64,000 nucleotides of DNA from Longimicrobiales bacterium (GTDB taxonomy: Bacteria; Gemmatimonadota; Gemmatimonadetes; Longimicrobiales; Gaopeijiaceae), in NCBI GenBank assembly GCA_965202805.1, contig OZ241869.1:256001-320000 (forward strand), written 5' to 3'. Every line of letters begins with the position of its first letter. Positions within the stretch are counted from its first letter, which is position 1. The translations under genes and the position numbers were made by a program. The notes under the pieces are model-generated. The model was not told the DNA's origin. It did not search any database and was given only the letters and a program-made list of their open reading frames with translations. Shown one piece after another: positions 8,478 through 25,319 of this stretch.

Positions 8478-8618
8478 CGCCAGAGCGCCTTCGTGCGGGA
8501 CGCCCTGCGCCGGCAGCTTGCCCTCGAGCGCCTCGATGCCCTCCGGCAGCGCATCATGCCCTTCGCCGAAAGCCGCGGTTATCTGACCGATGAGGATGTC
8601 TTCCGCGACGTCTCGTGA
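8478..8618 (+). pseudogene. 5'-truncated ribbon-helix-helix/CopG-type antitoxin
   Basis: SAFVRDALRRQLALERLDALRQRIMPFAESRGYLTDEDVF resembles the C-terminus of PIN-associated antitoxins. No start codon after the terminator. GTGA overlap with the PIN gene. Confidence 0.65.
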
Positions 8619-9029
8619 GGGTCTTCCTCGACACCAGCGTGGTGGTCGGCGCACTGGCCACCAGGGGGATCTGCTCCGACGTCCTGCACATCATCGTCTC
8701 CGAACACGATCTGCTGCTGAGCGAGACCGTCCTTCACGAGCTCGAGCGGGTGCTCGGCGGCAAGTTCGGCGTGCCGGCCGATGCCGTTCAAGAGGCGAAG
8801 AGGTTCCTGCGCGAAGAAGCCGCCACCGTTGTGCAGGTCGGCCAACCTCCAGCGGACGTCACGCTGCGTGACCCGGACGACGTTGCGGTCCTCGCCGAGG
8901 CGGTGGCGTCGAACGCGGACCTCCTTGTGACGGGAGACCGGGACCTGCTCGATGTCGCCGCGAACCTGCCGGTCATCCATCGCGAGTCCGCGCGAGTTCT
9001 GGGCGTTGCTGCGCGAGGAGGACCCGTAA
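8615..9029 (+). pseudogene. PIN-domain toxin with frameshift near its C-terminus
   Basis: MRVFLDTSV, RDPDD, LVTGDRDLL PIN motifs. Canonical tail IASPREFWALL...TAA (9027-9029) lies in another frame after a CATC-CATC duplication at 8974-8981. Confidence 0.75.
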
Positions 9030-9079
9030 TGGCCGGCTCCGAGCCGGGATCCGCCTCTTCCCGCCCAAGGGAGACTGGA

Positions 9080-10057
9080 ATGAACGACTTCTACGATGCC
9101 GTCTCGCCGGTTACGGGCGAAGTCTACAAGCCGCTCGACGATCTGCGTTTCATGGGGGGAACCACCCTCCTGCGCGCACCGCCGGCCACCACCCTGGACG
9201 GGCTCGACATCGCCCTCGTCGGCGTGCCGACGGACCACGGCGTGACCTTCCAGCCGGGCGCGCGGCACGGGCCGCGGGAGATCCGCAACCGGTCCAACGT
9301 GGTGCGCAGGATCAACGCGCTTACGAGGGTCGATCCCTTCTCGCTGTGCCGGATCGCCGATGTCGGCGACGTGCGACTCGACAGCATCTACCGTCTGGAC
9401 GACGTCGTCGCCCGGATCGAAGCCCACTTCACCCGCCTGCACGCGGCGGGCCCGGTGCCGCTGAGCGCGGGGGGAGACCATTCGATCACCTATCCGATCA
9501 TGAAGGCGCTGGGAGCCGGGCGGCCGCTCGGCATGGTGCAGATCGACGCGCATCTCGACACCTGGGACGCGATCGGCGGTTCGAAATACCACCACGGAGC
9601 TCCCTTCCGCCGCGCCGTCGAAGCGGGTGTGCTCGATCCCGAACGCTCGATCCAGATCGGCATCCGCGGCTACCAGAACTTCCTCGACGGCTTCGAGTTC
9701 TCGATGGCGCACGGCATGCGGGTCGTGCAGATCGACGAGTTCCAGCGGCTGGGGGTGGAGGCGGTCGTGGAGGAGGCGCGCCGGGTGGTCGGCGACGGCC
9801 CGGCCTACATCACCCTCGACGTGGACGGGATCGACCCTGCATACACGCCGGGAACCGGAACGCCGGAGATCGGCGGGCTAACCACGCGCGAGGCGATCGC
9901 GCTCCTGCACGGCCTGCGGGGGCTCAACCTCGTGGGAGGCGATGTGGTGGAGGTCGCCCCGCCTCTCGATCCGAGCGGGGGCACGGCGCTGGTCGGCGCA
10001 TCGCTGATGTACGAGATCCTGTGCCTGCTCGCGGAGTGCATCGCTTCCCGCCGATAG
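9080..10057 (+). CDS. Agmatinase/ureohydrolase family protein
   Basis: GARHGP, GGDHSIT, DAHLD, DVDGIDP, GTGTPE and VEVAP metal-binding motifs; RBS AAGGGAG before ATG 9080. Confidence 0.92.
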   Translation: MNDFYDAVSPVTGEVYKPLDDLRFMGGTTLLRAPPATTLDGLDIALVGVPTDHGVTFQPGARHGPREIRNRSNVVRRINALTRVDPFSLCRIADVGDVRLDSIYRLDDVVARIEAHFTRLHAAGPVPLSAGGDHSITYPIMKALGAGRPLGMVQIDAHLDTWDAIGGSKYHHGAPFRRAVEAGVLDPERSIQIGIRGYQNFLDGFEFSMAHGMRVVQIDEFQRLGVEAVVEEARRVVGDGPAYITLDVDGIDPAYTPGTGTPEIGGLTTREAIALLHGLRGLNLVGGDVVEVAPPLDPSGGTALVGASLMYEILCLLAECIASRR

Positions 10058-10753: not shown

Positions 10754-12493
10754 GTGGAAACCGGCCCCGGAAAGCCGGCAGGAGGGCTTCGCTACGCGGC
10801 CAACGAGTCGCCGCCGCATCCGGCCTCCTTCCTCCTTGGACTGCAGGTCGCCGTGCTGGTATGCACGCCCGTGGTCGTGGTCACCACCATCGTCACGCGC
10901 GCGGCGAATCTGACCGGCGCCTACCTGTCCTGGGCCATCTTCGCCAGCATGGTCATCGGCGGGCTCACCACCATCGTGCAGGCTCGGCGAGTCGCGGGCA
11001 TGGGGGGCGCCAACCTGATGATCATGGGGGCCTCCGGAGCCTCCATCGGGGTCGCGGTGCTGGCGCTGGCCGCGGGTGGTCCCGCGTTGCTCGCCGTGCT
11101 GGTGATCGCTTCGGGGCTCTTCCAGCTCGGTCTGGCGGCGCGCCTGGTCCTGCTCCGGCGAATCATCACGCCGGTCGTGTCGGGCACGCTCATGGCGCTG
11201 ATCGCCGTCACGGTGATGCCCATGGGGTTCGGGCTGCTGACCGAGGTGCCGGCGCAGGCGCCCACGGCCGCCGCGCCTGTCATCACGCTGGTCACCGCGG
11301 CTACCGCGCTGGGCCTGATGCTGCGCGCCCCCCGACTCCTGAGAGCCTGGACGCCGGTGGTTGCCCTCGGCCTGGGATGCGCCACGGCCGGCTTCTTCGG
11401 CATCTTCGATCTCACGGCGGTTCGCGAAGCCGGCTGGTTCGGGGCTCCCGCCGCGGCGTTGCCCGGTTTTGACGTCCGGTTCGACTCGAGCTTCTGGCTG
11501 CTCCTGCCGGCCTTCCTGTTCGTCACCCTGGTCATCACGGTCAGGCAGGTCGGCGACGCCATCGTCATGCAGCGCCTCTCTCGGCGCGAGCAAAAGGCGA
11601 TCGACTTCCGCAGGGTGGAGGGGGCCGTGGCGGCGTGCGGTGCGGGGACCCTGCTGTCGGGGATCGCCGGCGTCCTGCCGATCTGGCCCTATCCGGCCGG
11701 CATCGCCATGGCGGAGGGCATCGGCGTGGCAGCCCGGCGGGTGGGCGTCTACATCGGGGCCATCTTCATCGGCCTGGCGTTCGTTCCCAGGATCACCGCC
11801 CTCGTGCTGTCCATTCCGGGGCCCGTGCTGGGTGCCTATATCGTCGTGGTCATGGGGCTCGTCTTCGCCCGCGGCATGCGCGTGGTCTTCCAGGCGGACG
11901 GAGGGCGTCACAGCTCGCTGATCGCCGGATTCTCCTTCTGGGTCGGCATCGGCATCCAGTTCCAGGCGATCTTCCCGCAGTACCTGGGCACGCCCGCCGC
12001 GCAGATGCTGGCGAACGGGCTTACGGCCGGCGGGGTGACCATCCTCCTGCTGAACCTGTTCCTGGAGCTGACCGGGCCCCGGAGGCGCAGGGTCGAGATG
12101 CGGCTTGGTCAGGACAGCCTGCGCACCCTCGACGCATTCGTGGTCGGATTTGCGGAAAAATACGGGTGGGACGGCGAGGGAAGGGAGCGTCTCAGAGCAG
12201 CATCGGAGGAAGCGCTCCTCAGCCTCGCCCGGCAGGAGGAGGACGCAACCCGGGCCGCGGACCGGCGGCGCCTGCGCGTCGTCGCCCGCAACGACCGCAG
12301 CGGAGCCATCCTGGAGTTCAGCGCAGCCACCGACGCGGGGAATCTGGAGAACCGGATCGTCCTGCTCAGCGACCTTCCGGACTTCGAGAGCAAGCGCGAC
12401 CTGTCGCTGCGGCTCCTCCGCCACTACGCGTCATCCGTGAAGCACCAGCAGTATCACAACGCGGATGTCGTCACGATCCGCGTGGACAGGTAG
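10754..12493 (+). CDS. NCS2/UraA-fold (xanthine/uracil permease-like) membrane protein with C-terminal RsbW/HATPase-like domain
   Basis: Many TM segments with IITPVVSG, VGD, GVAARRVG and SIPGPVLG; about 140 aa soluble tail containing RLRAASEEALLSL...RDLSLRLLRHYASSVKH. Confidence 0.8.
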   Translation: METGPGKPAGGLRYAANESPPHPASFLLGLQVAVLVCTPVVVVTTIVTRAANLTGAYLSWAIFASMVIGGLTTIVQARRVAGMGGANLMIMGASGASIGVAVLALAAGGPALLAVLVIASGLFQLGLAARLVLLRRIITPVVSGTLMALIAVTVMPMGFGLLTEVPAQAPTAAAPVITLVTAATALGLMLRAPRLLRAWTPVVALGLGCATAGFFGIFDLTAVREAGWFGAPAAALPGFDVRFDSSFWLLLPAFLFVTLVITVRQVGDAIVMQRLSRREQKAIDFRRVEGAVAACGAGTLLSGIAGVLPIWPYPAGIAMAEGIGVAARRVGVYIGAIFIGLAFVPRITALVLSIPGPVLGAYIVVVMGLVFARGMRVVFQADGGRHSSLIAGFSFWVGIGIQFQAIFPQYLGTPAAQMLANGLTAGGVTILLLNLFLELTGPRRRRVEMRLGQDSLRTLDAFVVGFAEKYGWDGEGRERLRAASEEALLSLARQEEDATRAADRRRLRVVARNDRSGAILEFSAATDAGNLENRIVLLSDLPDFESKRDLSLRLLRHYASSVKHQQYHNADVVTIRVDR

Positions 12494-12541: not shown

Positions 12542-14386
12542 TCACAGCAGCCGCCGCACGATCAGCTCGACGCATTCCTCGGGCTCGAGTTTCTCGGTGT
12601 CGAGCCGCAGGTCCGGGTTCCGGGGCTTCTCGTAGGGGCTGTCGATGCCGGTGAAGTTGCCGATCTCGCCCCTCATCGCCTTGGCGTAGAGTCCCTTGGG
12701 ATCGCGCGCCGCGCAGACCTCGAGGGATGCGTCGACGAAGATCTCCCTGAAGTCGCCGGGGTCGAACAGGCCGCGGGCGAAGTCCCGTTCGGACCGGAAG
12801 GGGCTGATGAAGGACACGATCACGACCAGCCCCGCGTCGACCATGAGACGAGCCACCTCGGCAACCCTGCGGATGTTCTCCACCCGGTCCGCCTCGGTGA
12901 AGCCGAGGTCCCGGTTGAGCCCGTGGCGGACATTGTCGCCGTCCAGCAGGTAGGTGTGGTTCCCCTCGGCGTGGAGGCGCTGCTCGAGCAGGTTGGCGAC
13001 CGTGGTCTTGCCGGATGCCGAGAGCCCGGTCAGCCACAGGCAGCGGGCCCGCTGCAGCTTGAGTTCCTGGCGGGCCTCGCGGGTGACGTGGAAATCCTGC
13101 CACCGGATGTTGGATGCGCGCTTGAGCGCGAAGTTGATCGTGCCGGCCCCCGCGGTTTCGTGGGTGGTCCGGTCGATCATGATGAAGCTGCCCAGCCCCC
13201 GGTACCGGTCGAAGGGCGCGTAGGGGATCGGCCGGTTGGTCGAGATGTTGACCGTGGCCAGATCATTGAGGCTCAGCGTGGTGCCCGCCAGCCTGGTCCC
13301 CCGCGACACATCCAGCCGGTACCTGATCCGGGTTACGGTCGCGGTCACTTCCCGCGAATGGATCTTGAGCAGGTAGGAACGGCCGACAACCAGCGGGCGA
13401 TCGTGCATCCAGATCAGATTGGCCTGGAAATGGTCGGTCACGCCCGGGGGGTTGAAGGCTTCCGCGATGACGTCGCCCCGGGTCACATCCACCTCGCTCG
13501 CCAGGGTCAGCGTCACCGAGTCGCCCCGCTCGGCCTGCTCCCGGGTGCCCTGCCACACCACGATCGACTCCACGACGGTCTCCACTCCCGACGGGGATAT
13601 GCGCACGCGGTCCCCCACCGCAACCTTTCCGGCCGCGATCCGGCCGCTGTAGCCGCGAAAGTCGAGGTTGGGGCGGTTGACGTATTGCACGGGCATCCGG
13701 AAGGACTCCCTCTCCATGGACGACTCGACGTCAACCGTCTCCAGGTGCTCGAGCAGCGTGGGGCCGGAATACCATTCCGCGGACGCGCAGCGATGCGTCA
13801 GATTGTCTCCCGCAAGTGAAGATACGGGTATGATTTGCAGGTTCTCGACACCGACCTCGCGCGCCATCGACCGGTACCCGTCCGCGATCGCTTCGAAAGT
13901 GCTCCGATCCCAGAGCACCAGGTCCATCTTGTTGACTGCGAGGACCAGGTGCCGGACCCCGAACATGACCGCGATGCGGGTGTGCCGGGCGGTCTGGGGC
14001 AGGATCCCCTTGCGGGCGTCGGCCAGAACGACCGCCAGATCCGCATTCGAGGCTCCGGTCGCCATGTTTCGGGTGTATTGCTCGTGGCCGGGCGCGTCGG
14101 CGACGATGAACCGGCGCCGGGGCGTCTCGAAGCTGCGGTAGGCGACATCGATGGTGATGCCCTGCTCGCGCTCGTCGCGCAGGCCGTCCACCAGCAGCGC
14201 CAGATCGGTCTCGTCGCCCTGCGTGCCCCAGCGCCGGGAATCCTCCTCCACCTTCCGCAGCTCATCGGCGAAGACCTGCCGGCAATCATGGAGCAGCCGG
14301 CCCAGGAGGGTGCTCTTGCCGTCGTCCACACTGCCGCACAGGACGAAGCGCAGGGGAGGTCGCGCTGGCGGGGGGGAAGGGGCCAT
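12542..14386 (-). CDS. cysNC: Bifunctional sulfate adenylyltransferase subunit 1 / adenylyl-sulfate kinase
   Basis: GSVDDGKST, EREQGITIDVAY, DAPGHEQY and NKMD GTPase motifs; C-terminal APS kinase WLTGLSASGKTT, LDGDNVR, NFTGIDSPYE. TGATG overlap with cysD. Confidence 0.95.
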   Translation of the reverse strand: MAPSPPPARPPLRFVLCGSVDDGKSTLLGRLLHDCRQVFADELRKVEEDSRRWGTQGDETDLALLVDGLRDEREQGITIDVAYRSFETPRRRFIVADAPGHEQYTRNMATGASNADLAVVLADARKGILPQTARHTRIAVMFGVRHLVLAVNKMDLVLWDRSTFEAIADGYRSMAREVGVENLQIIPVSSLAGDNLTHRCASAEWYSGPTLLEHLETVDVESSMERESFRMPVQYVNRPNLDFRGYSGRIAAGKVAVGDRVRISPSGVETVVESIVVWQGTREQAERGDSVTLTLASEVDVTRGDVIAEAFNPPGVTDHFQANLIWMHDRPLVVGRSYLLKIHSREVTATVTRIRYRLDVSRGTRLAGTTLSLNDLATVNISTNRPIPYAPFDRYRGLGSFIMIDRTTHETAGAGTINFALKRASNIRWQDFHVTREARQELKLQRARCLWLTGLSASGKTTVANLLEQRLHAEGNHTYLLDGDNVRHGLNRDLGFTEADRVENIRRVAEVARLMVDAGLVVIVSFISPFRSERDFARGLFDPGDFREIFVDASLEVCAARDPKGLYAKAMRGEIGNFTGIDSPYEKPRNPDLRLDTEKLEPEECVELIVRRLL

Positions 14387-15297
14387 CAGAAGTAGCCCTC
14401 CCTTTTCTTGCGTTCCATGGAGGCGTCGCCGTCGTGGTCGACCAGGCGTCCCCGGCGCTCGGAGTCGCGGGTTGCCAGCGTCTCGGCGAGGATCGCCTCC
14501 AGGGTGTCGGCGTCGCTCTCGACCGCGGCCGTGAGCGGATAGCATCCGAGGGTGCGGAAGCGGATGCGAAGGCGTTGCGGCTCCTCGCGGGCGCCGAGCG
14601 GCATGCGCTCGTCGTCGACCATGATCCACTGCCCTTCGCGTTCGACGACCGGGCGCTTCTTCGCGAAATAGAGCGGGACCACCGGGATCCCCTCGGCCGC
14701 GATGTAGCGCCAGATGTCTGCCTCGGTCCAGTTGGAGAGCGGAGACACGCGGAGCGATTCACCTTGGTGGACGCGTGTATTGTAGAGGTTCCAGAGTTCG
14801 GGGCGCTGCGCCCTGGGGTCCCACTGGTGGGCCGAGTTGCGGAACGAGAACACCCGCTCCTTCGCCCGTGATCCCTCCTCGTCCCGCCGCCCGCCCACGA
14901 AGATGATGTCGTACTTCCCGGCGTTCAGGGCCTGGCGCAGCGCTTCGGTGGTCATGACGTCGGTGTAGCGCTCGGATCCGTGCGAGAACGGGTCCACGCC
15001 GGCCCGCAGCCCCTCCTCGTTCACGTGAACCACGAGCTCGACACCCGCCTCGGCCACCGCGCGGTCACGGAAGGCGATCATCTCGCGGAACTGCCAGGTG
15101 GTCTCGATGTGCAGCAGAGGAAGGGGAGGCGGCGCGGGCCAGAACGCCTTGCGCGCCACATGGAGCAGAACCGACGAGTCCTTGCCCATCGAGTAGAGCA
15201 TGACGGGCCGGGCGGCCGCCGCGATCCCTTCGCGGATGATCTCGATGGCTTCCGATTCGAGGGAGGAAAGCCAGCGGGAGGTGCCTCGCTCGCTCAA
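14386..15297 (-). CDS. cysD: Sulfate adenylyltransferase subunit 2
   Basis: [57 protein letters not shown] start overlaps the P450 stop (TTGA). Confidence 0.95.
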
Positions 15298-16640
15298 GCG
15301 CACCCTCTCTCCCGCACCCGCAGGGGGAGTCCCTCGCTGATGCGATAGACGCCCGTCGAGTTGATCCTGGCCGGCTTCGGGGAAACAGCCTCGACCCGCC
15401 AGCGCTGCGCGATGCTCGTGAGAGTGTAGACGGCCTCCATGGTGGCGAACTTCCACGCGATGCACATGCGGGCGCCGGATCCGAAGGGGAAGCAGGATTG
15501 CTTCATGTGGCGCACCTCCGCGTCGTCCATCCATCGCTCCGGCCTGAACGCCTCGGGGCACTCGAAGTAGTCCGGATGCCGGTGCGGCGGCCGGAAGTAT
15601 GTCTGCACGATCGTACCCCTGGGAATGAAGTACCCGCCGATGGCGCAGTCTTCGATGGCCTCCCGCCCCAGGAAGTAGATCGGCGGAGACTGTCGCAATG
15701 CTTCCTGGAAGAGGGCGGTGGCGTACGGCAGCCTCCCGAAGTCGCCCGGCTCAATGCCGCGGGTCCCGATGACGTCGTCGATTTCCTGCTCGAGCCGGTC
15801 GGCGACACCCGGATTTCGCGAAAGGTAGTCGAGGCAGAAGGTCATCGCGCTGGAGGAGGTGTCGTGGCCCACCATGAGCAGCACGAAGGCCTCGTCCCGC
15901 ACCTCGTCGTCGGAGAAGACCTGATCGACGCCCTCCTCGTCCTCGGCCCGAACGAGCAGTGAGATCAGATCGCTCCTGTCCCGGGAGCGGTCGCGGGCCC
16001 GGCGGATGACCTCGTAGATCACCTCGTCCATGGCCTTCCACGCACGCCTGGCGCGCAGATTCCCGGGCAGGGGCAGAACTCGAAGCAGCCCGGTGAACGG
16101 GAAGAAGCGGAGCGTGAAGTCCCAGATGCAGCCGTCCACGGTGGCCTGCCCGATTTTCGGGTCGACTTCCATGTCGCGCCCGAAGAAAGCCGTGACGGCG
16201 ACGCTCATCGCGAGGTCATGCATCGCCGCCGCCCCGTCGATCACCTGGCCGTCGTGCCAGCTCTCCCGCATTGCGTGGGCCTTCTCCACCATGATCTGCG
16301 CATATGCCGACATGCCCTTCCTGCCGAACGAGGGCTGGTACAGCTTCCGCCGCCTGCGGTGATCATCTCCGTCGCTGCTGGTGATGGTGAGGTTTTTCAT
16401 CGGCCGCATGTCCTTGTAGCCGATCGTCTTGTGAAACGATCGCTGCTTCGTCACAAGAACTTCCCGAATCGCGGCCGGATCCGAGACCGCAACGAACCGC
16501 CGATTCAGGAGACGGTAGGACGCCACACCGCCGTATCGGCTGTGCAGGCCCTCCAGAAAGCGCGGGAAGTCGCGCAGGCGGGCCAGGACGTGCCGGAAGT
16601 GGCCTCCCCGGGGTCCCGGGGGCTGCCGTTCTTCGTTCAT
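15294..16640 (-). CDS. Cytochrome P450 (third in operon)
   Basis: I-helix VGHDT, EALR, FRPERW, heme motif [16 protein letters not shown] overlap with the upstream P450. Confidence 0.95.
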
Positions 16641-18100
16641 TCCCGGTCGGGACGTCGGCGGACCACTACGGGGAGCCCCTTGCGACATTTGTAGAAGAGG
16701 ACGTCCGCGATGGGCGGGAACCCCTCGAAGGTCAGGTCGAACCGCCACCGCTGCGCGAAGACGGAAAGCGCCAGCACCAGCTCGAGCAGCGCAAACCGGA
16801 AACCGCTGCAGAAACGGATGCCGCTGCCGAAGGGCGCATACGCCATTCGCGGCAGCCGGGGCTTCGGCTCCTGCAGCCAGCGCTCCGGCATGAACCGATC
16901 CTGTTCCCCGAAATAGTCGTCATGCCGCATGGGCGTCCGGATGGACAGCTCCACCATCGTGTCCTCGGGGATCCGGTAGCCGCCGATCACGACATCTTCC
17001 GTCGTAACCCGTCCCAGATAGGTGACCGGCGGGGTCATGCGGAGCGATTCGTCCACGACCGCCCTGGCGTACTTCAGCCTGGGGACGTCATGGAAGCCGG
17101 GCAGGCGCCCTCCGAGCACGGTGTCCACTTCCTCTTCCAGCCGGGCACGCACGTCGGGGTTGCGGCCCAGGTGATAGGTGCACCACGTCATCGTGGCCGC
17201 GATGGTGACGTGGGACGCCACGATGATCGCGAGCACTTCGTCTCTCAGCTCGGCTTCGGTGAAGTCCCAATCGGGGCGCTCCGCGTCCCACGCCGTCACC
17301 AGGTGCGAGATGAGATCGCTCCGCCCGCTGCTCCCGCGCGTCCTGCGGATGTTGTCGCAGACCGCTTCGTGGAACTCCGCGATGTGGCGCCGGGCGGAGA
17401 TCGTCCGCGGATGAGGAAACGCCCTGGCCAGTTTCTCGAACGGGATGTGGCTCAGCCCGAACATCCACCTGAACGAGGCCAGATAGTCCTTCATGAGCCG
17501 GGTGCCGATGCCCATGTCGTCTCCGAAGAACGCGCGGCTCGCGATGGAGAGCGACAGGTCGGTGGCCAGGTGGTCCATGTCGATATGCTCGCCGTCGCTC
17601 AGCGCGTCTCTCGCACGCCGGAGCTCGCTGACCATCTTCTCGCTGTAGCCCTGGATGCACCTGGGGGTGAAGGAGGGCTGGATCAGCCTGCGCCGGCGCG
17701 CGTGGTCCTCGCCGTTGGCGGTTATGATGCAGTCGTTCCCCATGGTCTTTCGTTCCTGCGAGCCCTTGCGGAACGATTCGCGCTCCCGGGCGATCACCTC
17801 TTCCATCAGATCGGGCCGGAAGAGCACGCAGAAGCGTTTGTCCATGATGCGGTACGCGACGACATCCCCGTATTCCTCGCGCAGTCCGGCGAAGAATCCG
17901 GTCGTATGACGGACCCTGCGAATCAGGTTGCGCATCCGCTGGCCGCGCGGACCCGGCGGCCTCGGGAAGTCGGATGGATTCGGGGACGGAGCGACGGCGC
18001 GGGCGGCATGCTGCGCAGGACACTCTTCTCGCTGCGCGCCTCCGTTGTGCTCTCTCTTCAAGCTGCTCTCCCCCGGGACATTGTCCCATGTGTGCGCCAT
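16637..18100 (-). CDS. Cytochrome P450 (second in operon; atypical I-helix)
   Basis: ESLR, FMPERW, heme motif APFGSGIRFCSG; I-helix reads ASHVT. Start uncertain. Confidence 0.93.
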   Translation of the reverse strand: MAHTWDNVPGESSLKREHNGGAQREECPAQHAARAVAPSPNPSDFPRPPGPRGQRMRNLIRRVRHTTGFFAGLREEYGDVVAYRIMDKRFCVLFRPDLMEEVIARERESFRKGSQERKTMGNDCIITANGEDHARRRRLIQPSFTPRCIQGYSEKMVSELRRARDALSDGEHIDMDHLATDLSLSIASRAFFGDDMGIGTRLMKDYLASFRWMFGLSHIPFEKLARAFPHPRTISARRHIAEFHEAVCDNIRRTRGSSGRSDLISHLVTAWDAERPDWDFTEAELRDEVLAIIVASHVTIAATMTWCTYHLGRNPDVRARLEEEVDTVLGGRLPGFHDVPRLKYARAVVDESLRMTPPVTYLGRVTTEDVVIGGYRIPEDTMVELSIRTPMRHDDYFGEQDRFMPERWLQEPKPRLPRMAYAPFGSGIRFCSGFRFALLELVLALSVFAQRWRFDLTFEGFPPIADVLFYKCRKGLPVVVRRRPDRE

Positions 18101-18140
18101 TGTATTCCGGGCCTGTCGGGGTGGTCAAGCCGGGTCAAGA

Positions 18141-19178
18141 CTACCGCCGGACCCGGTTGTCGTACCCCAGAATTTCCTGTCCCGGGGCGCAGGCCGCGGC
18201 CAGGCGGGCATGCCGCTCCGGCGAAAGGCGGGTCCGGTTGGGCGGCCTGCGGCGAGGCAGCGCGCTGACTTCCCGCAGCCAGCGGGCATCGACGAAATCG
18301 GCGCCCAGGAAGTCGATGAAGCGACTCATCTCCTCCTCCGGGGACGCCACGATCGATTCGAAGCGCATCGCCAGCACCCGGTCCGCAGGCAGCGCGTTCA
18401 GGTACTCCGTGCCGCGCTCGATCATCCCGCTCCAGAACCATCCCGCCGACTTCAGCCGGATCCCGGCGCGCCGGTAGCGGTCGGCGGAGAAGAAACGGAA
18501 TCGCCAGCGCTCGAAGAGCGGCATCCAGGGACTGGTGCCCAGCCAGTGGGCCGGGTGGAAGGGATCGAGGCCGAACATTCTCAGCAGTTCCGCGGCCTCG
18601 ATCCGCAACCTGAAGAAGTGGTGGCCGTGCATCGACATTGCCGTATCGCGCCCGTCGCGGAAAACGTGTACGAAGCGAGCGCCCGGAAAGAGCCTGTCCA
18701 ACTGCGGAACGAACAGCAGCGAAGCTCCGGAGCGCTCGATCCACGCCCTCTTTCCGAAGTGATCGGCGAGCCATTCGAAGACGAAGCGGTAGTGGGCCGC
18801 CAGCGACGCCTCGCCCCGGGGTCGGAGCGCCGCCGCCAGGTCGTCCCAGAGCCGCTCGGGATCGTCGCTCAGGTGCGGAAGCGTGGCGCACATGATGGCG
18901 GGCACCTCATCCGCCCGATAACGCGCATCGGGACCGAGCCGATAAAGGAATTCCTCCATGAACAGGCCGTTTCCCAGCAGCGCGCGACCGGCCGGCGACA
19001 GCGTGTTCAGCCGCCGGTATGCGGCCTCGCCCGTCATCATGCCGCCCCGCAAGGCTCTGCTCGCCAGCGAGGTGAGGAACTCCGACACGCTCAGGAGGTC
19101 GGGATGCATCCGCACCATGTTGGAGAGCAGTGTGGATCCGCACCGCCCGGTGCTGACGATGAACGTGGGCCGCATCAT
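18141..19178 (-). CDS. PAPS-dependent sulfotransferase
   Basis: 5'-PSB loop STGRCGSTLL, 3'-PB motif FRDGRDTAMS, MRFESIVASP; ATGA overlap with the upstream oxygenase. Confidence 0.9.
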   Translation of the reverse strand: MMRPTFIVSTGRCGSTLLSNMVRMHPDLLSVSEFLTSLASRALRGGMMTGEAAYRRLNTLSPAGRALLGNGLFMEEFLYRLGPDARYRADEVPAIMCATLPHLSDDPERLWDDLAAALRPRGEASLAAHYRFVFEWLADHFGKRAWIERSGASLLFVPQLDRLFPGARFVHVFRDGRDTAMSMHGHHFFRLRIEAAELLRMFGLDPFHPAHWLGTSPWMPLFERWRFRFFSADRYRRAGIRLKSAGWFWSGMIERGTEYLNALPADRVLAMRFESIVASPEEEMSRFIDFLGADFVDARWLREVSALPRRRPPNRTRLSPERHARLAAACAPGQEILGYDNRVRR

Positions 19179-20368
19179 GCGGCGCCATCCCGCCCGCTCG
19201 GGCGGTCCCATGGCAAGGCTCCGTAGTCACCGGTCCTGAGCCAGAACTCCAGACCCATGAAGTTGCGGATCCGGTCGGGGAGCAGCCCCGGCCACCGTTC
19301 CGTCAGGCGGATGAGGGCGATGACGGTGCGGCACAGCAGAGGGCGAGGGCGGCTCCAGTGGCCGAGCCGGTCCGCCATGCCCGGCCCGAGCAGGTAGCGG
19401 GACATGGGACGAACCACGCCGGTGAACATGCGCGCCAGGCGTTCATTCCTGATGTGCATGTACTCCGGGCCCGATTCGATCATGGCGCGGTACAGCTTCC
19501 TGGAGGTCTCGTCGGGATCGAATTCCAGACTGAACGCCACGTCCGCCAGCGCGCGTGCATCGCCCTCGGAACGGAAACCGATGTCCGGACTCACACCGAG
19601 CAGGTGGTTCAGGTAGCGCCACGTCATCATGACGCTGTCGCGTTCACGCCGGTTCAGACGCACGCCCAGTCGCCGAAGGCCATCGACCACATACAGGGAG
19701 AAGAAGACGGAGTTCATGGCCATATGGGACTGGTTCAGGGGCACTCCGTAACCGGCGGCGTCCCATCGGCCGGTGCGGAGGATCTCCAGGCGCACGCGGG
19801 CGTGCATCACCCGCACGATCACGGCCATTCTGAATCCGTCCGCGTCTCTCCGCAGGCCGTCGGGCAGGAACGACTCCAGGACGAAGCGCACCGTCCTGCC
19901 GTACCGCCGGGCCGTCTCCCGCAGCAGCCGCCCGGTGAAGGCCAGCGGCCTGTTCGCCGTCGCCAGATAGGAGTGAGGCAGCGCGTAGGCGGCGAACGCG
20001 AGCCCGGTGAGCATCCCCGAGCGCAGGATCCTCGCGCTCGCGGGGCGCATCTCCTGCCAGTCCACCCACGACGGCACATGATCCAGCTCCTCGAACAGCG
20101 CCGTCAGGGCCGGAGGCGGATCGTCCAGGGCATCCACGCCGTGTGTGATCGCCTGGTGCAGGAGCCGGTCGACCTGATGAGCCGACAGCCCGTTGGTGGG
20201 CAGCATCAGCGCGTCGGCCAGCGGATCGCCCAGGTACAGGTTCGCCAGATACCGGTCGACCGCTTCGTCGCCGTGGATCTCCCTCGCGATGCGGATCCGT
20301 TCCGGGGACAGCGCCGGCGGAAGATCCCCGGGGGAAACCCGCGCGCGGGTCGAGCTAGCGGCCACCAC
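19175..20368 (-). CDS. MpaB/DUF2236 (rubber oxygenase Lcp-like catalytic domain) heme oxygenase
   Basis: GDPLAD, PSWVDW, VRVMHARVR, PLNQSHMA, WRYLNHLLGV motifs typical of the family. Confidence 0.85.
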   Translation of the reverse strand: MVAASSTRARVSPGDLPPALSPERIRIAREIHGDEAVDRYLANLYLGDPLADALMLPTNGLSAHQVDRLLHQAITHGVDALDDPPPALTALFEELDHVPSWVDWQEMRPASARILRSGMLTGLAFAAYALPHSYLATANRPLAFTGRLLRETARRYGRTVRFVLESFLPDGLRRDADGFRMAVIVRVMHARVRLEILRTGRWDAAGYGVPLNQSHMAMNSVFFSLYVVDGLRRLGVRLNRRERDSVMMTWRYLNHLLGVSPDIGFRSEGDARALADVAFSLEFDPDETSRKLYRAMIESGPEYMHIRNERLARMFTGVVRPMSRYLLGPGMADRLGHWSRPRPLLCRTVIALIRLTERWPGLLPDRIRNFMGLEFWLRTGDYGALPWDRPSGRDGAA

Positions 20369-21791
20369 GGCGCCTCCGCGGGATGGCGGGAAGTCCCCCC
20401 TTGCACGCGTAGACCGCCTTCGAGTCCACCTCGGCCGGCTCGCTCGAGACGGCCTCCAGTCTCCAGCGGCGGGCGATGGTGGCCATCACCAGGACGGCCT
20501 CCATGGTCGCAAAACCCCAGGCGATGCAGATGCGCGGACCGTAGCCGAAGGGAAGGAAGGCGTGCCGAGGGTGGCCGGGAGGCTCCTCCAGCCACCGTTC
20601 CGGTCTGAAATCCGATGGCCGCCGGAAGTGTCTCTCGTTCCAGTGGACCACGCGGATGCAGGGCTGCACGACCGTGCCCCTGCGGATCCGGTAGCCGCCG
20701 ATCTCGCAGTCCTCCAGCGCCTCCCGTCCGACGAAGTAGATGGGCGGGGCGATGCGAAGGGCCTCGTTGAAGACGGCTTTCGTGTACGGCAGCTTCGGGT
20801 AGTCTTCCGGCGTCAGCGGCCGGTCGTGCGCGATCTGGTCCACTTCCCGTTCGATCGCGTCGCGCACGCGGGGGTGCCGCATGACGTAGTAGAGGCACCA
20901 CGTCATCGCCGCCGCCGATGTCTCGTGACCGGCCATCAGCAGGATCAGCGCCTCGTCCCGGATCTCGTCGTCGGTGAAGGGGCGCTCGATCCCCTCCTCG
21001 TCCTCCGCCGTCACCAGCAGCGAGACCAGGTCGGCGCGTTCCCGGGAAGGATCCCTCGCCCGGCGAATGACCTCGAAGATCACCTCGTCCATGTCCTTCC
21101 AGGCCCGCCTGGCGCGCAGGTTCGCGGGCAGGGGCAGCCGCCGCAGAAGGTTCGTGCAGGGCAGGATTCCCAGCGCGAAGTCCCAGGTCATGGCATCCAC
21201 AACCGCCTTGCCCACCTTCGGATCCACCCGCATGTCACGTCCGAAGAAGCACGCGACGGCAACGGCGATCGCGATCCGGTGTACCTCGCGGGCGGCGTCG
21301 AGCGGGTGACCGTCGCGCCAGCGTTCCTGCACCTGCCGGGCCTTTTCCAGCATCAGGCCCGCGTATTCGTCCATCCCTTTCTTGCCGAACGATGGCTGGA
21401 CGAGCTTGCGCCGCCGCTGGTGATCGGTGCCGTCACCCGTCAGCAGGGTGGGGTTCCGGACGGGGCGGATGTCCTTGTAGGCAAAGGTCTTCGCGAAGGA
21501 ATGACGCTTCGCCACGAGGATCTCCCGAATCAGGTAGGGATCGAACACCGCGCAGAATCGCCGCGAGAGCAGCCTGTACGACGCGATCGCGCCGTACCGG
21601 GCGTGAAGGGATTCGAGCAACCCGGGGAAATTGCGGATGCGGGCCCAGAGGTGGCGGATGCGGCGCCCGCTGGGCCCCGGGGGCGAAGGCAGCGAGCCGG
21701 ATCGAGCCGGAGTTCGATCTGTCACATCAGCCAGGAGCATCCTGAAGGCATTCATCCGCCCGATGTTACCTTTGCGTCGGGATCGCATCAC
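20355..21791 (-). CDS. Cytochrome P450 (first in operon)
   Basis: AGHET, EALR, FRPERW, heme motif LPFGYGPRICIA. Confidence 0.95.
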   Translation of the reverse strand: MMRSRRKGNIGRMNAFRMLLADVTDRTPARSGSLPSPPGPSGRRIRHLWARIRNFPGLLESLHARYGAIASYRLLSRRFCAVFDPYLIREILVAKRHSFAKTFAYKDIRPVRNPTLLTGDGTDHQRRRKLVQPSFGKKGMDEYAGLMLEKARQVQERWRDGHPLDAAREVHRIAIAVAVACFFGRDMRVDPKVGKAVVDAMTWDFALGILPCTNLLRRLPLPANLRARRAWKDMDEVIFEVIRRARDPSRERADLVSLLVTAEDEEGIERPFTDDEIRDEALILLMAGHETSAAAMTWCLYYVMRHPRVRDAIEREVDQIAHDRPLTPEDYPKLPYTKAVFNEALRIAPPIYFVGREALEDCEIGGYRIRRGTVVQPCIRVVHWNERHFRRPSDFRPERWLEEPPGHPRHAFLPFGYGPRICIAWGFATMEAVLVMATIARRWRLEAVSSEPAEVDSKAVYACKGGLPAIPRRRRGGR

Positions 21792-21893
21792 GGTTCCTCA
21801 ACCGGTTCAACCTCGCAATCGGGTTGGAATTCGCAGCTTGGTCCTACTGTAAGATGAGCCTGAAAACGGTCGGGCGGGCAAGTCCGATTCTTG

Positions 21894-21922
21894 TTGACAC
21901 CCGGCGACCGGGCAATCAGTTT
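21894..21922 (+). promoter_or_regulatory. Possible sigma70 promoter for the STAS genes
   Basis: Perfect TTGACA, 17-nt spacer, weak -10 CAGTTT, in the divergent intergenic region. Confidence 0.4.
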
Positions 21923-21981
21923 CTGTCGGTGTCGTTGCTTTCTCGGTCCAAGTGAATGGCTCACCACTTGGGAGCACGGTC

Positions 21982-22644
21982 ATGAGTATACAGGTAGGCT
22001 TTTCCCGGAAAGCAGGAGTCCTGATCGCTTCGCCGGCGGGTCGCGTCGACAGCGCAAACAGCCGGACATTTCGCGAAGCGCTGGAGGCCGGCATCCCGTC
22101 CGGAGAACGAGCTCTGCTCCTGGATCTGGGGCGGCTCACCTACATGAGCAGCGCCGGTCTGCGCGTCCTGCTGATGGTTGCAAGAAGATTCCAGGGACCC
22201 GACAACGCGATCGGCGTATGCAGCCTCTCGGCGATGCTGCACTCGATCATTTCGTTGACCGGCTTCGACAAGATCATGCCGGTCTACGAGACCATGGACG
22301 ATGCCCTGCGGTCGATCTCCGAAGAGGAGGACGCGGGTGCCGTCTACGCCGCCGTCCGGGAGCCGAGATCGCAGGAGGAGCTTCTGGGACAGCTTCCGAA
22401 CTCGCTCGACATGAACACCCTGGGAGAGAACATCACCGACATCGCCGAGTTCACGATCGAGAAGCACGAGTTCACCCACGACCGCCTCGACCCGGATGTG
22501 CGCGATCAGGCGCTTTCCGCGATCAAGGGCACACTCTGGGAGTTCGTCGAGGATCAGATGAAGCGCCGCCACGAGATCCTTACGCAGATGTTCGCGAGCG
22601 CGGCGGCGACGTTCGGCGAGGTGATGAAGGGGAACGCCCGCTGA
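21982..22644 (+). CDS. STAS-domain anti-sigma factor antagonist with C-terminal helical extension
   Basis: GRVDSANS, LLLDLGRLTYMSSAGLRVLL, LTGFDKI; about 110 extra acidic/helical residues. Confidence 0.88.
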   Translation: MSIQVGFSRKAGVLIASPAGRVDSANSRTFREALEAGIPSGERALLLDLGRLTYMSSAGLRVLLMVARRFQGPDNAIGVCSLSAMLHSIISLTGFDKIMPVYETMDDALRSISEEEDAGAVYAAVREPRSQEELLGQLPNSLDMNTLGENITDIAEFTIEKHEFTHDRLDPDVRDQALSAIKGTLWEFVEDQMKRRHEILTQMFASAAATFGEVMKGNAR

Positions 22645-22747
22645 GCGGGATCCGCGGAAGGACCGGGGCGTCTGCGCCACCGCAGCGGGCCGGGGCCCAT
22701 ACCGGCAACGGGTCCGCTTCCGCCTCATCGGCACCGTGAGGGAATCC

Positions 22748-23197
22748 ATGGATTTGCAGGTTGGCTGGGAGAGAGTGGCCGGTGTGCTGATTGCGTCGCC
22801 CGCGGGGCGGGTCGACAGCGTGAACAGCGCGGACTTCCGTGCGGCCATGGAGTCGGGAATCCCGCAGGGGGAAAGGGCCCTGCTGCTTGATCTGCAGGAT
22901 CTTTCCTACATGAGCAGCGCGGGGCTGAGCGTCATTCTGATGGTCGCCAGAAAGTTCAGTCAGGCCGACCAGACGATTGCCATGTGCGGACTGTCGGGAC
23001 CGATCCGCTCGGTCGTGTCCCTGAGCGGCTTCGACAAGATCATCCCGGTCCACGAGTCCCGTGCCGCGGCCCTCGAGGCGTTTCCCGCGGTCGATGAGAC
23101 CGATGCCGGCCAAATCGATGCCGAGGCGGCGCGGCCCGCTCCGGACGAGAGTCGATCGGATCGTCCGTCGTGGTCCTTCAAGAGGCACTCGATGTGA
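22748..23197 (+). CDS. STAS-domain anti-sigma factor antagonist
   Basis: GRVDSVNS, LDLQDLSYMSSAGL, LSGFDKII; paralog of the upstream gene. Confidence 0.9.
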   Translation: MDLQVGWERVAGVLIASPAGRVDSVNSADFRAAMESGIPQGERALLLDLQDLSYMSSAGLSVILMVARKFSQADQTIAMCGLSGPIRSVVSLSGFDKIIPVHESRAAALEAFPAVDETDAGQIDAEAARPAPDESRSDRPSWSFKRHSM

Positions 23198-23294
23198 GCG
23201 TCGGGGAGTTGTGAAGTAGTCCTCGGTGAACGACATTCGCTGGCATGCGCCCGCGCGCCCCATGGTGGCCCGTACCCGCAGCCGGGAGTCCCCG

Positions 23295-25319
23295 ATGCAC
23301 GAAGCCGTGAATCGCAGTCGCTGCAGCCCCCGTCGACCCCCCTCCCCCCGCCGCATCCTCCCCGCCGTGGTGATCTTCGCCGCCGGGGTGCTGGCAGGCC
23401 CGGCTGCGGCGCCGGCACTCGTTGCGCAGCAGGGGGCGGCCGGCGGCAACTGGCTCCACTACGGGGGTGACGCGGGGAGCACCAAGTACTCGCCGCTCGA
23501 CCAGATCACCGCGGACAACGTCGCCGACCTGGAGATCGCGTGGCGCTGGGAGTCGCGCAACTTCGGCGACCGGCCCGAGTTCAACTACCGGGTAACCCCC
23601 CTCGCGGTGAACGGCACCCTGTACGTCACCGCGGGCTACCGGCGGGCGGTGGTCGCCATCGACGGCGCCACCGGCGAGACCATGTGGATGTACCGCATGG
23701 ACGAAGGGGTGCGCGCCGAGACCGCGCCGCGCGCCAACTCCGGCCGCGGGGTCGCGTACTGGACAGACGGCCAGGCGGAGCGCGTCCTCGTGATCACCCC
23801 GGCCTACCACATGGTCTCGCTGGATGCGAGGACCGGACGGCCGGACCCGGCCTTCGGCCAGGACGGGATCGTCGACCTGCGCAGGGACTTCGGGCCCCGC
23901 GAGGTCGACATCGACAACGACCCGCTGGGTTCGAGCTCCCCGCCGGTGATCGTGGGAGATGTGGCGGTGGTGGGGACGGCGCTGCCGTCCGGAAGCTCGC
24001 CCCCGAAGCCCGACATGCCGCCCGGCCACGTGCGCGGCTACGACGTGCGCACCGGCGAGCGTCTCTGGATCTTCCACACCATCCCCCAGGAGGGCGAATA
24101 CGGGAACGACACCTGGCTGGACGGGTCCTGGCGCTACACCGGCAACGCGGCCGTCTGGACGCCCTTCTCGGCGGACCTCGAGCGCGGCTACGTCTACCTG
24201 CCCATCGAAGCCCCGACGGGTGACTACTACGGCGGCCACCACCCCGGCAACAACCTCTTTTCCCAGAGCCTGGTGTGCCTCGACGCGCGTACCGGCGAGC
24301 GGGTGTGGCACTTCCAGATGGTCCATCACGGCATCTGGGACTACGACCCGCCCGCGCCTCCCATCCTGCTAGACATCACCGTGGACGGGCGCACCATCCC
24401 GGCGGTGGCGCAGGTCAGCAAGCAGGCGTTCACCTACGTCTTCGACCGCTACACGGGCGAGCCGGTCTGGCCCATCGAGGAGCGGCCGGTGGCGCTCAGC
24501 GAGGTGCCCGGCGAGTGGACCGCGCCCACCCAGCCGTTCCCTACCCGCCCCGCCCCCTTCGACCGCCAGGGGGTATCGGTGGACGACCTCATCGACTTCA
24601 CCCCGGAACTGCGCGCGGAAGCGCTGGACATGGTCTCCCGGCTGGTGATCGGGCCGCTCTACACCCCGCCCTCGGTCATCGACCTGGACGACCCGAACGG
24701 CACCCTGGGCACGCTGGTGCTGCCCGGGTCGCTGGGCGGAGCCAACTGGCCGGGCGGTGCGGTCGACGTGGAGACGGGCATCCTGTACGTCACCTCCGTC
24801 ACGTCGCCGTCGGTGCACGGCCTCATCAACGACCCGGAGATCTCCAGCATGGACTATATCTCCGGGCGCGCCTTCCGCCGGGTGCGCGGCGGCGGTCCGC
24901 AGGGGCTCCCGCTCATCAAGCCGCCCTGGGGGCGCATCACCGCCATCGACCTGAACACCGGCGACCATGTCTGGATGAGGCCCAACGGCGACACCCCCGA
25001 CTATGTGCGCGAGCACCCGGCACTGGCCGGGGTGGACATTCCCCCGACCGGGAAGCCCGACCGGGGCGGCACCATGGTGACCCGGACCCTGCTCTTCGCC
25101 GGGGAGGGGGGCGGGATGTTCGCGGCCTTCGGGTCGGGCGGCAACAGACTGCGCGCCCACGACAAGGCCACCGGCGAGATCGTGCACGAGTTCGAGCTCC
25201 CCGCCAACCAGACCGGGGTGCCGATGACCTACCTGGCCGACGGACGCCAGTTCATCGTGGTGGCGGTGGGCGACCGCGGCCACGCCGCCGAGCTGGTGGC
25301 GCTCGCGCTTCCGCGGTAG
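23295..25319 (+). CDS. PQQ-dependent dehydrogenase (glucose/quinate/shikimate-like, secreted)
   Basis: WLHYGGD...YSPLDQIT, WHFQMVHHGIWDYD, GGANWPG, PMTY..DGRQFIVVA. Start uncertain (23226-23295). Confidence 0.9.
   Translation: MHEAVNRSRCSPRRPPSPRRILPAVVIFAAGVLAGPAAAPALVAQQGAAGGNWLHYGGDAGSTKYSPLDQITADNVADLEIAWRWESRNFGDRPEFNYRVTPLAVNGTLYVTAGYRRAVVAIDGATGETMWMYRMDEGVRAETAPRANSGRGVAYWTDGQAERVLVITPAYHMVSLDARTGRPDPAFGQDGIVDLRRDFGPREVDIDNDPLGSSSPPVIVGDVAVVGTALPSGSSPPKPDMPPGHVRGYDVRTGERLWIFHTIPQEGEYGNDTWLDGSWRYTGNAAVWTPFSADLERGYVYLPIEAPTGDYYGGHHPGNNLFSQSLVCLDARTGERVWHFQMVHHGIWDYDPPAPPILLDITVDGRTIPAVAQVSKQAFTYVFDRYTGEPVWPIEERPVALSEVPGEWTAPTQPFPTRPAPFDRQGVSVDDLIDFTPELRAEALDMVSRLVIGPLYTPPSVIDLDDPNGTLGTLVLPGSLGGANWPGGAVDVETGILYVTSVTSPSVHGLINDPEISSMDYISGRAFRRVRGGGPQGLPLIKPPWGRITAIDLNTGDHVWMRPNGDTPDYVREHPALAGVDIPPTGKPDRGGTMVTRTLLFAGEGGGMFAAFGSGGNRLRAHDKATGEIVHEFELPANQTGVPMTYLADGRQFIVVAVGDRGHAAELVALALPR

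Follow-up and report, generated by a model that had tools for sequence, protein, structure and literature searches.

What would a bacterium do with three cytochromes P450, a heme oxygenase and a sulfotransferase whose genes are strung together with those for sulfate activation, when nothing encoded around them would build a scaffold for them to work on? The question is raised by a stretch of 64,000 nucleotides from the genome of a Longimicrobiales bacterium (GenBank assembly GCA_965202805.1, contig OZ241869.1, positions 256,001 to 320,000), referred to throughout as the window. A first-pass annotation had described seven genes between positions 12542 and 21791 of the window as a self-contained pathway that oxidizes a lipophilic molecule obtained elsewhere and then sulfates it. 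The core of this locus, consisting of the sulfotransferase, an oxygenase of the Lcp/MpaB fold and a set of P450s and here called the cassette, is real, conserved and mobile, and its substrate is probably an isoprenoid-derived lipid, either a sterol or a linear or prenylated compound. Statements about published systems refer to the excerpts of the cited papers that were available.

The genes of the locus

All seven genes lie on the minus strand in the order first described, and every open reading frame scores above the cut-off of its family. The first encodes P450a, a cytochrome P450 of an uncharacterised family (20355..21791, with a GTG start at 21791 or an ATG start at 21755; PF00067, E 5e-76). 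It is followed by the Lcp/MpaB-fold (DUF2236) heme oxygenase, which belongs to the first of two clades described below (19175..20368; PF09995, E 1e-24, 88 bits against a cut-off of 23), and by a sulfotransferase of the Sulfotransfer_3 family dependent on 3'-phosphoadenosine 5'-phosphosulfate (PAPS) (18141..19178; PF13469, E 2e-19, 71 bits against 27). Two more P450s come next, P450b (16637..18100; E 5e-66) and P450c (15294..16640; E 6e-69), so that the PF00067 cut-off is passed three times. The last two genes are cysD, for the small subunit of ATP sulfurylase (14386..15297; TIGR02039, 465 bits against 397), and cysNC, for the large subunit fused to adenosine 5'-phosphosulfate kinase (12542..14386; PRK05506, 909 against 715). 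Read from the sequence, five of the six junctions overlap: by 14 nt between P450a and the MpaB-like oxygenase, by ATGA between the oxygenase and the sulfotransferase and again between P450b and P450c, by TTGA between P450c and cysD, and by TGATG between cysD and cysNC. Among the window genes scanned there was no polyketide synthase (PKS), nonribosomal peptide synthetase, terpene cyclase, redox-partner or cysH/I/J family, in agreement with the first description.

Conservation and spread of the cassette

The comparison covered 41 genomes (G labels): the window's own (G000, a single contig, C1, of 4.02 Mb and 98% complete), 18 congeners and 22 other relatives, with G025 included in the tallies; L labels denote individual loci. 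Matches to the sulfotransferase were found in 8 of the 18 congeners, and the other relatives yielded only one weak fragment. In six congeners (G002, G006, G007, G009, G010 and G012) cysD has the sulfotransferase, an MpaB-like gene and a cassette-clade P450 beside it; of the remaining two, G004 has its locus in fragments and G016 only a single relative, at 38% identity. Gene order and orientation differ widely, and cysNC is absent from the 20-kb locus in G002, G010 and G012. Content varies as well. The three P450s are present here as first described, but their number is lineage-specific and ranges from one to three among relatives, and some relatives carry a second sulfotransferase.

A genome-wide scan for the sulfotransferase gave 17 loci, four of them already counted as congeners. 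Within 10 kb of the sulfotransferase, nine of these have an MpaB-like gene and eight a cassette-clade P450. In 6 of the 17 the sulfotransferase has a distant P450 nearby, which is about 680 residues long where complete and fused to GPP34 where scanned; 2 of the 17 have no oxygenase of any kind. Cassette loci occur in Acidobacteriota (L029, L035, L036) and Nitrospirota (L030, L034), and cysD-cysNC is linked to the cassette in L029, L030 and L031. Metagenomes searched with the oxygenase alignment added 23 loci, 11 at 46% identity or above and 12 distant; since L079 to L082 are near-copies and L086 matches L031, the close set holds fewer than 11 independent cases. In the close set the sulfotransferase adjoins the oxygenase in 9 of 11 and a P450 is present in 8 of 11, and a sulfotransferase was found in only 1 of the 12 distant loci (L089, arranged sulfotransferase-SDR-MpaB). 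In L079 and L082 the cassette is followed downstream by a sulfatase gene, and in L082 one for a TonB-dependent receptor lies in between.

Synteny in other genomes had been set beforehand as a test of the proposal, and the triad recurs across three phyla in differing surroundings. The conserved unit is the sulfotransferase together with an Lcp/MpaB-fold oxygenase and a P450 of the uncharacterised family. Trees in which phyla are mixed (for the P450s, a FastTree of 26 cassette-clade rows and two outside P450s) and the integrases or transposases that flank the cassette in G010, G012, L034, L035, L036 and L084 suggest horizontal spread. Relatives of the sulfotransferase in a plasmid collection reach 34-36% identity only. 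A close one, at 63%, is encoded by Tistlia consotensis, a cultured species, which offers an experimental entry point.

Nine congeners keep the string STAS-cysD-cysNC-NCS2 at the same chromosomal slot without the cassette. Late insertion of the cassette beside an older cysD-cysNC pair was considered and set aside, as trees of the flanking pyrroloquinoline quinone (PQQ) gene and of cysD fit loss at least as well. In these quick, midpoint-rooted trees, cassette-bearing genomes occupy early branches and eight cassette-less ones cluster as a single derived group (with support of 94 and 89), a pattern that favours loss from the derived group over gain beside cysD. The gap between cysD and cysNC receives inserts of its own: a GPP34-P450 gene and a second sulfotransferase family in G018 (L056), fabH in G006 (L015) and an IscB-like reading frame in G001 (L060).

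The gene arrangement is not an assembly artefact, because gap-free contigs from other sequencing runs bridge most of the locus. One from run X7 spans 15062-23059 with 113 differences and zero gaps, and one from run X12 spans 17758-23507. The locus is intact and under purifying selection. Compared with the G006 orthologues, dN/dS is 0.11-0.30 for the cassette and 0.09-0.23 for flanking genes; P450a, 90% identical to its G006 counterpart, stands at 0.11 and P450b at 0.25. All or part of the stretch was found in 20 public runs from 10 studies, none of them RNA runs, with at least half of its words in 14. Eight runs (2 studies) are labelled sponge metagenome, and the two best-matching runs may be the source sample. 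G000 also encodes a GPP34-P450 fusion, an architecture reported, in the excerpt of PMC11706023, from sponge symbionts only, which makes a sponge symbiont the likely host of the cassette.

Supply of PAPS

The single copies of cysD and cysNC in G000 could in principle have served sulfate assimilation. No match to the NIR_SIR sulfite reductase family was found in any of the five genomes searched, and cysD itself was the sole PF01507 (PAPS-reductase family) match in the 98% complete G000. With no assimilatory reductases found, PAPS feeds sulfotransferases, as the first-pass annotation had argued. The description of this supply as dedicated to the operon has to be given up. Two tandem clusters of swf type (L115-L116, at C1 1,461,000-1,487,000), each with a type I PKS, a reductase-sulfotransferase and a B12 radical SAM enzyme, also need PAPS and must draw on the same sole copies of cysD and cysNC. 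The suspicion that these might be the only housekeeping copies was thus half borne out: they are the only copies, but they are not assimilatory.

The swf clusters lie 1.2 Mb from the cassette, and neither a swf-type PKS nor the fusion occurs in the window. All nine cassette-less congeners have a SwfB-like match at 55% identity or above. Conversely, G007, G009 and G012 carry the cassette and no SwfB-like match was found in them, so swf products are not required for its function; in G007 and G009 the cassette sulfotransferase is the only PF13469 gene found.

The enzymes

The predicted model of the oxygenase (pLDDT 83) matches Lcp with Z 26.5, a root-mean-square deviation (rmsd) of 3.8 over 337 aligned residues and a template-modelling (TM) score of 0.67. 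Aligned to Lcp structure 5O1L, residues H189, R155, T159, R186 and R193 correspond to Lcp His198, Arg164, Thr168, Arg195 and Arg202. Four of the five are invariant across 28 sequences and T159 is kept in at least 90%. Of the residues that PMC5522427 names for the heme and active site, all but Glu148 and Lys167 are kept; the position of Lcp Lys167 is Arg or variable. The second-best fold match (Z 17.3), identified by its PDB title, is t-anethole oxygenase, presumably an alkene-cleaving enzyme, for which no structure paper was found in the literature.

The cassette oxygenases fall into two clades, clade I with those of the window, G002, G006, G012, L031 and L034-L036, and clade II with those of G004, G007, G009, G010, L029 and L030. 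Occupation of the same slot by two separate clades argues that function matters there and not the history of one gene. Clade II joins a sister group, MpaB2, in one clade with support 100/100. In G008, G016, G017 and G018, MpaB2 lies within a locus of a sterol methyltransferase (SMT), a GPP34-P450, a KshA-like Rieske oxygenase and an RND transporter.

All three P450s have the FxxGxRxC heme-cysteine motif and ExxR. The acid-alcohol pair of the I-helix is kept in P450a (AGHET) and P450c (VGHDT) and is absent from P450b (ASHVT), where A/S-S-H-V-T occurs in 5 of the 6 members of its subclade; a second subclade (L078-L084) also lacks the acid, with AS-L/V-TT. The missing acid hints at non-standard chemistry by P450b. 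P450c is a paralogue of P450a at 58% identity, and P450b is 38% identical to P450a in the same clade. Among 8000 candidates scored in a protein-database search, 59 clusters reached 41% identity or above, none named beyond 'cytochrome P450', after which identity drops to 40% or below. The NCBIfam models for albaflavenone monooxygenase, pentalenene oxygenase and ApyO gave at best 222, 210 and 147 bits against cut-offs of 700, 800 and 525, and the CYP51 model scored below these terpene-oxygenase models. The cassette P450s match PF00067 only, lack a GPP34 domain and share about 20-27% identity with the GPP34-P450 family.

Both PAPS-binding motifs of the sulfotransferase, the 5'-phosphosulfate loop TGRCGST and the 3'-phosphate motif RDGRDTAMS, are conserved across 40 sequences. 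Its nearest folds are CurM (TM 0.50) and OLS (TM 0.46), at 15-20% identity and an rmsd of 8-9, and structures as distant as these give no indication of the substrate. The ESM Atlas gave nothing beyond generic names.

A further enzyme recurs in relatives. A 3β-hydroxysteroid dehydrogenase (3β-HSD)-like reductase, with PF01073, HpnA and SdmB-type matches, is encoded within or next to the cassette in G006, G004, L031/L086, L034 and L077, and is fused to a P450 in G009 and P0204, the G009 protein being a P450c relative with the reductase at its N terminus. The G000 homologue, 68% identical to the G006 copy, is at C1:1.486 Mb, and a stand-alone ferredoxin gene is also found elsewhere in this genome, close to C1 2,522,300. 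With no redox partner in the cassette and the reductase encoded elsewhere, 'self-contained' was too strong a description.

A sterol as possible substrate

What, then, is oxidized and sulfated? A scaffold-less pathway that oxidizes before it sulfates, as first proposed, agrees with the way the sulfotransferase, MpaB-like and P450 core holds together through reshuffling and across phyla. No core synthase was found among the window genes scanned, and G000 has no cyclase (no PF13243 match). The reading we put forward, tentatively and with somewhat less than even confidence, is that an imported sterol is hydroxylated, cut at a side-chain double bond, reduced and sulfated. A sterol from the host or community would enter this tailoring-only cassette, and the P450s would hydroxylate its ring system and side chain by way of a ferredoxin encoded elsewhere; P450b, with no I-helix acid, may carry out a non-standard step. 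The Lcp-fold enzyme would cut a side-chain double bond, for instance Δ24(25), to an aldehyde or ketone, and the 3β-HSD-like reductase would turn the carbonyl into an alcohol or else invert C3. Sulfation of hydroxyls would then give a short-chain hydroxylated sterol sulfate, perhaps as a means of detoxifying or exporting a membrane-active lipid, perhaps to act on the host.

There are precedents for several of these steps. MpaB' cleaves a farnesyl chain at its terminal double bond and so removes three carbons (bioRxiv 10.1101/524025), a gut symbiont sulfates host cholesterol with a sulfotransferase encoded beside PAPS genes (PMC9417993), and SMTs of sponge symbionts methylate Δ24 sterols in vitro (PMC10070321). 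A Sterol_MT_C methyltransferase is encoded in G000 and 13 of 18 congeners and in none of the 22 other relatives, and no cyclase was found in G000 or in 16 of the 18 congeners (2 have one). The presence of MpaB2, sister to the clade II cassette oxygenases, in the SMT locus of four congeners was also counted in favour of a sterol.

A number of observations weigh on the other side. The catalytic base of Lcp, Glu148, aligns to A138/N139, and clade I has no acid in that stretch, so cleavage of a double bond is not assured. The best P450 models are those of terpene oxygenases, far under cut-off, no enzyme of the set is near a characterised sterol enzyme, and the nearest sulfotransferase folds act on acyl chains and peptides. 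The distribution of the SMT does not follow that of the cassette: no match was found in 4 of the 6 cassette-bearing congeners (G002, G007, G009, G010), all nine cassette-less congeners in which the slot was read do carry one, and only 1 of 5 cassette genomes of other phyla does. The window's oxygenase belongs to clade I and not to the clade linked to the SMT locus. Finally, the reductase is multi-copy in the genus, its G000 copy stands head-to-head with a swf PKS, and G007, G010 and G012 have the cassette and no close copy. As to sterol ring degradation, no TIGR03213 (HsaC/BphC-type) match was found in the five genomes searched, a search that did not extend to other catabolic genes.

Elsewhere in G000, L026 (C1 1,918,000-1,925,400) brings together an RND transporter, a GPP34-P450 fusion, a sterol C24-methyltransferase and a KshA/SdmA-like Rieske oxygenase, and is conserved and reshuffled in congeners, five of which have the MpaB2 oxygenase gene within it. 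It is a candidate sterol-modification locus in a mostly cyclase-free genus.

A more specific version of the sterol proposal takes its cue from solomonsterol A of the sponge Theonella swinhoei, a 25,26,27-trinor-cholestane 2β,3α,24-trisulfate (PMC6278499, PMC4926076). A Δ24 sterol would differ from this compound by the three-carbon loss that MpaB' catalyses. The Lcp-fold enzyme would then cleave the side chain, the new P450 family would add hydroxyls to the A/B rings, C3 would be inverted by the reductase, and the ring and side-chain sulfates would come from one or two sulfotransferases. That the cassette is the bacterial source of solomonsterol-type short-chain polysulfated sponge sterols is unlikely. 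If it were, symbionts of several phyla would be turning host sterols into nuclear-receptor-active steroids.

Other possible substrates

The leading alternative keeps the chemistry and changes the molecule. Acting on a linear or prenylated isoprenoid, which could be squalene, a carotenoid or a prenylquinone made by the cell itself or else a sponge terpenoid or polyprenyl hydroquinone, the same enzymes would yield sulfated nor-isoprenoids. Both Lcp and MpaB' cleave isoprenoid double bonds (PMC5522427, 10.1101/524025), mycobacterial cyp128-stf3 sets a precedent by giving sulfomenaquinone (PMC6469627), and the nearest named P450 models oxidize terpenes. A squalene/phytoene-synthase-family match occurs in all 18 congeners, and in G000 a squalene-synthase-like gene and a pair resembling crtB-crtI occur without a cyclase. 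The cassettes of L078 and L031/L086 are flanked by genes resembling squalene synthase, for which TIGR01559 is the best model although its cut-off is not reached, and in G010 MpaB2 is 4 kb from one. Yet such a neighbour occurs in only two independent cassette loci, the crtB-like gene is absent from the cassette-bearing G002, G006 and G010, and the genome of L035, of completeness not given, has the triad and no squalene/phytoene synthase match. On balance we regard this substrate as somewhat unlikely when set apart from sterols; for the two taken together, an isoprenoid-derived lipid is the probable answer.

Related genes are found at other places in the genus. The squalene-synthase-like gene of L113 (C1 2,215,858-2,216,901) is coupled to a class V aminotransferase gene, and similar-scoring matches are found in 17 of 18 congeners, against 2 of 18 for a cyclase. 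Squalene epoxidase is fused to a triterpene cyclase in G013 (L123) and adjoins one in G014 (L124).

The enzymes might instead detoxify small metabolites of the host, aromatic or alkenyl, by aryl-alkene cleavage, P450 hydroxylation, sulfation of the phenol or alcohol and efflux. This would suit the t-anethole oxygenase match, the MATE or RND transporters encoded within or close to the cassette in L034, L029 and L030, and the p-hydroxybenzoate hydroxylase near it in L077. The oxygenase is nearer to Lcp, however, no aromatic-pathway gene recurs across loci, and phenol sulfotransferases gave the poorest scores of the profile search, with E above 0.002, which leaves such a role improbable.

Slimmer still is the chance that the enzymes act on a long-chain fatty or alkyl lipid, with sulfation possibly serving, as in CurM and OLS, to activate for elimination and not as a final tag. 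The domains of these two proteins are the nearest sulfotransferase folds, but the match is weak, with TM at most 0.5. The fabH gene between cysD and cysNC in G006, the FabH-like, epimerase or hydrolase genes adjoining distant (35%) sulfotransferase relatives on Paracoccaceae plasmids, and the reductase paralogue head-to-head with swfA all point towards acyl chemistry; no thioesterase, acyl carrier protein or PKS recurs in cassette loci, and three cassette-bearing congeners do without a SwfB-like match. Chance grouping of unrelated oxygenases beside housekeeping cysD-cysNC, with no common pathway, would fit the shifting order and orientation and the persistence of cysD-cysNC where the cassette is absent, but is scarcely credible given the triad in three phyla with differing surroundings, the overlapping genes, the dN/dS values and the lack of assimilatory reductases in the searches.

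Surroundings of the cassette

The sole gap between cassette genes, 40 nt between the sulfotransferase and P450b, contains a sigma70-like site, TTGACC-18-TACAAT (18128-18099), a weak candidate promoter before P450b on the minus strand. One such site was observed in the region where 0.9 is expected by chance, and its hexamers are retained in 1 of 7 related loci scanned (G006 only). If the promoter is real, P450b would start at the in-frame TTG at 18061, and two transcription units, one on each side of the gap, are possible. A terminator scan gave 6 matches against 3.5 expected, and an Rfam search of the window gave none.

Upstream the cassette is bounded by two divergent STAS-domain genes of anti-sigma antagonist type (21952..23197, plus strand); STAS genes are also inside or adjoining the cassette in G009, L031 and L021. 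The downstream boundary is a convergent gene for an NCS2-family permease (10754..12493, plus strand), which is not part of the cassette because it is retained in cassette-less congeners. The permease is extended at its C terminus by about 140 residues that match no Pfam family, and NCS2 paralogues also flank the sterol-methyltransferase locus.

Further out, a PIN-domain gene and an arginase-family gene are joined in one frame at 8615-10057 (plus strand). One base at position 8977 is absent in all four independent runs aligned, and its absence would split the two genes; the fusion probably reflects either a mistake in the assembly or a peculiarity of the strain. EgtB-like and EgtD-like genes at 52415-54687 presumably belong to an ergothioneine-type pathway. 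Outside the window, 17 tRNA genes of G000 are arrayed within 3 kb (C1 2,827,836-2,830,698), and a selenocysteine tRNA lies at 987,331.

Comparison with known systems

Tailoring-only clusters without a core synthase tend to be missed by standard cluster finders. MIBiG aside, no description of a sulfotransferase, an Lcp-fold oxygenase and P450s together was found in the mostly open-access literature searched; excerpts of two preprints (10.64898/2025.12.11.692455 and 10.64898/2026.08.03.742642) do not mention a sulfotransferase.

Three systems share the setting of the cassette and not its content. The Ircinia-symbiont steroid clusters (ERG24-CYP51-LSS) are also cross-phylum and horizontally moved, with a DFR-type reductase and an SMT nearby (PMC9531527). 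They build sterols, whereas the cassette has no cyclase and adds sulfation, and PMC9531527 does not mention a sulfotransferase. The swf clusters (SwfA PKS, SwfB reductase-sulfotransferase, SwfC radical SAM) are a sponge-symbiont pathway with proposed terminal reduction and sulfation (PMC3908369). In G000 they share the PAPS supply of the cassette but make their own acyl scaffold, and their sulfotransferase has no tblastn match to that of the cassette. The GPP34-P450 fusions pair with the cassette sulfotransferase family in 6 of 17 loci, and the G000 fusion adjoins its SMT gene; the cassette P450s lack GPP34, and neither sulfotransferase, sterol nor MpaB is mentioned in PMC11706023.

With Lcp, MpaB' and t-anethole oxygenase the cassette oxygenase has in common the fold, the proximal His and the equivalents of Arg164, Thr168, Arg195 and Arg202 (PMC5522427, 10.1101/524025). 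It differs from Lcp in its 18-20% structural identity, in having no Glu148 acid and in being encoded with a sulfotransferase and P450s. The cassette would assign a role to a branch of the Lcp/MpaB group in which the known catalytic base is missing, and to a P450 family without a characterised member above about 40% identity.

Two systems come closer in layout, the second by its pairing of P450 and sulfotransferase. BT_0411-BT_0416 of Bacteroides thetaiotaomicron is likewise host-associated, with a sulfotransferase gene adjoining those for PAPS synthesis and a scaffold from outside (PMC9417993); the excerpt mentions neither a P450 nor a cleaving oxygenase, and the cassette has no sulfate importer. 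Mycobacterial cyp128-stf3 (S881) is a scaffold-less P450 and sulfotransferase operon acting on an isoprenoid lipid from elsewhere (PMC6469627), but has three genes with one P450, no Lcp-fold oxygenase and no PAPS genes. The cassette is a short, testable enzyme set that could explain the origin of some sulfated sponge steroids. Judged by these comparisons, it is not an Ircinia steroid-gene, swf or GPP34-P450 locus, and it appears by analogy to function in the manner of BT_0411-0416 and cyp128-stf3.

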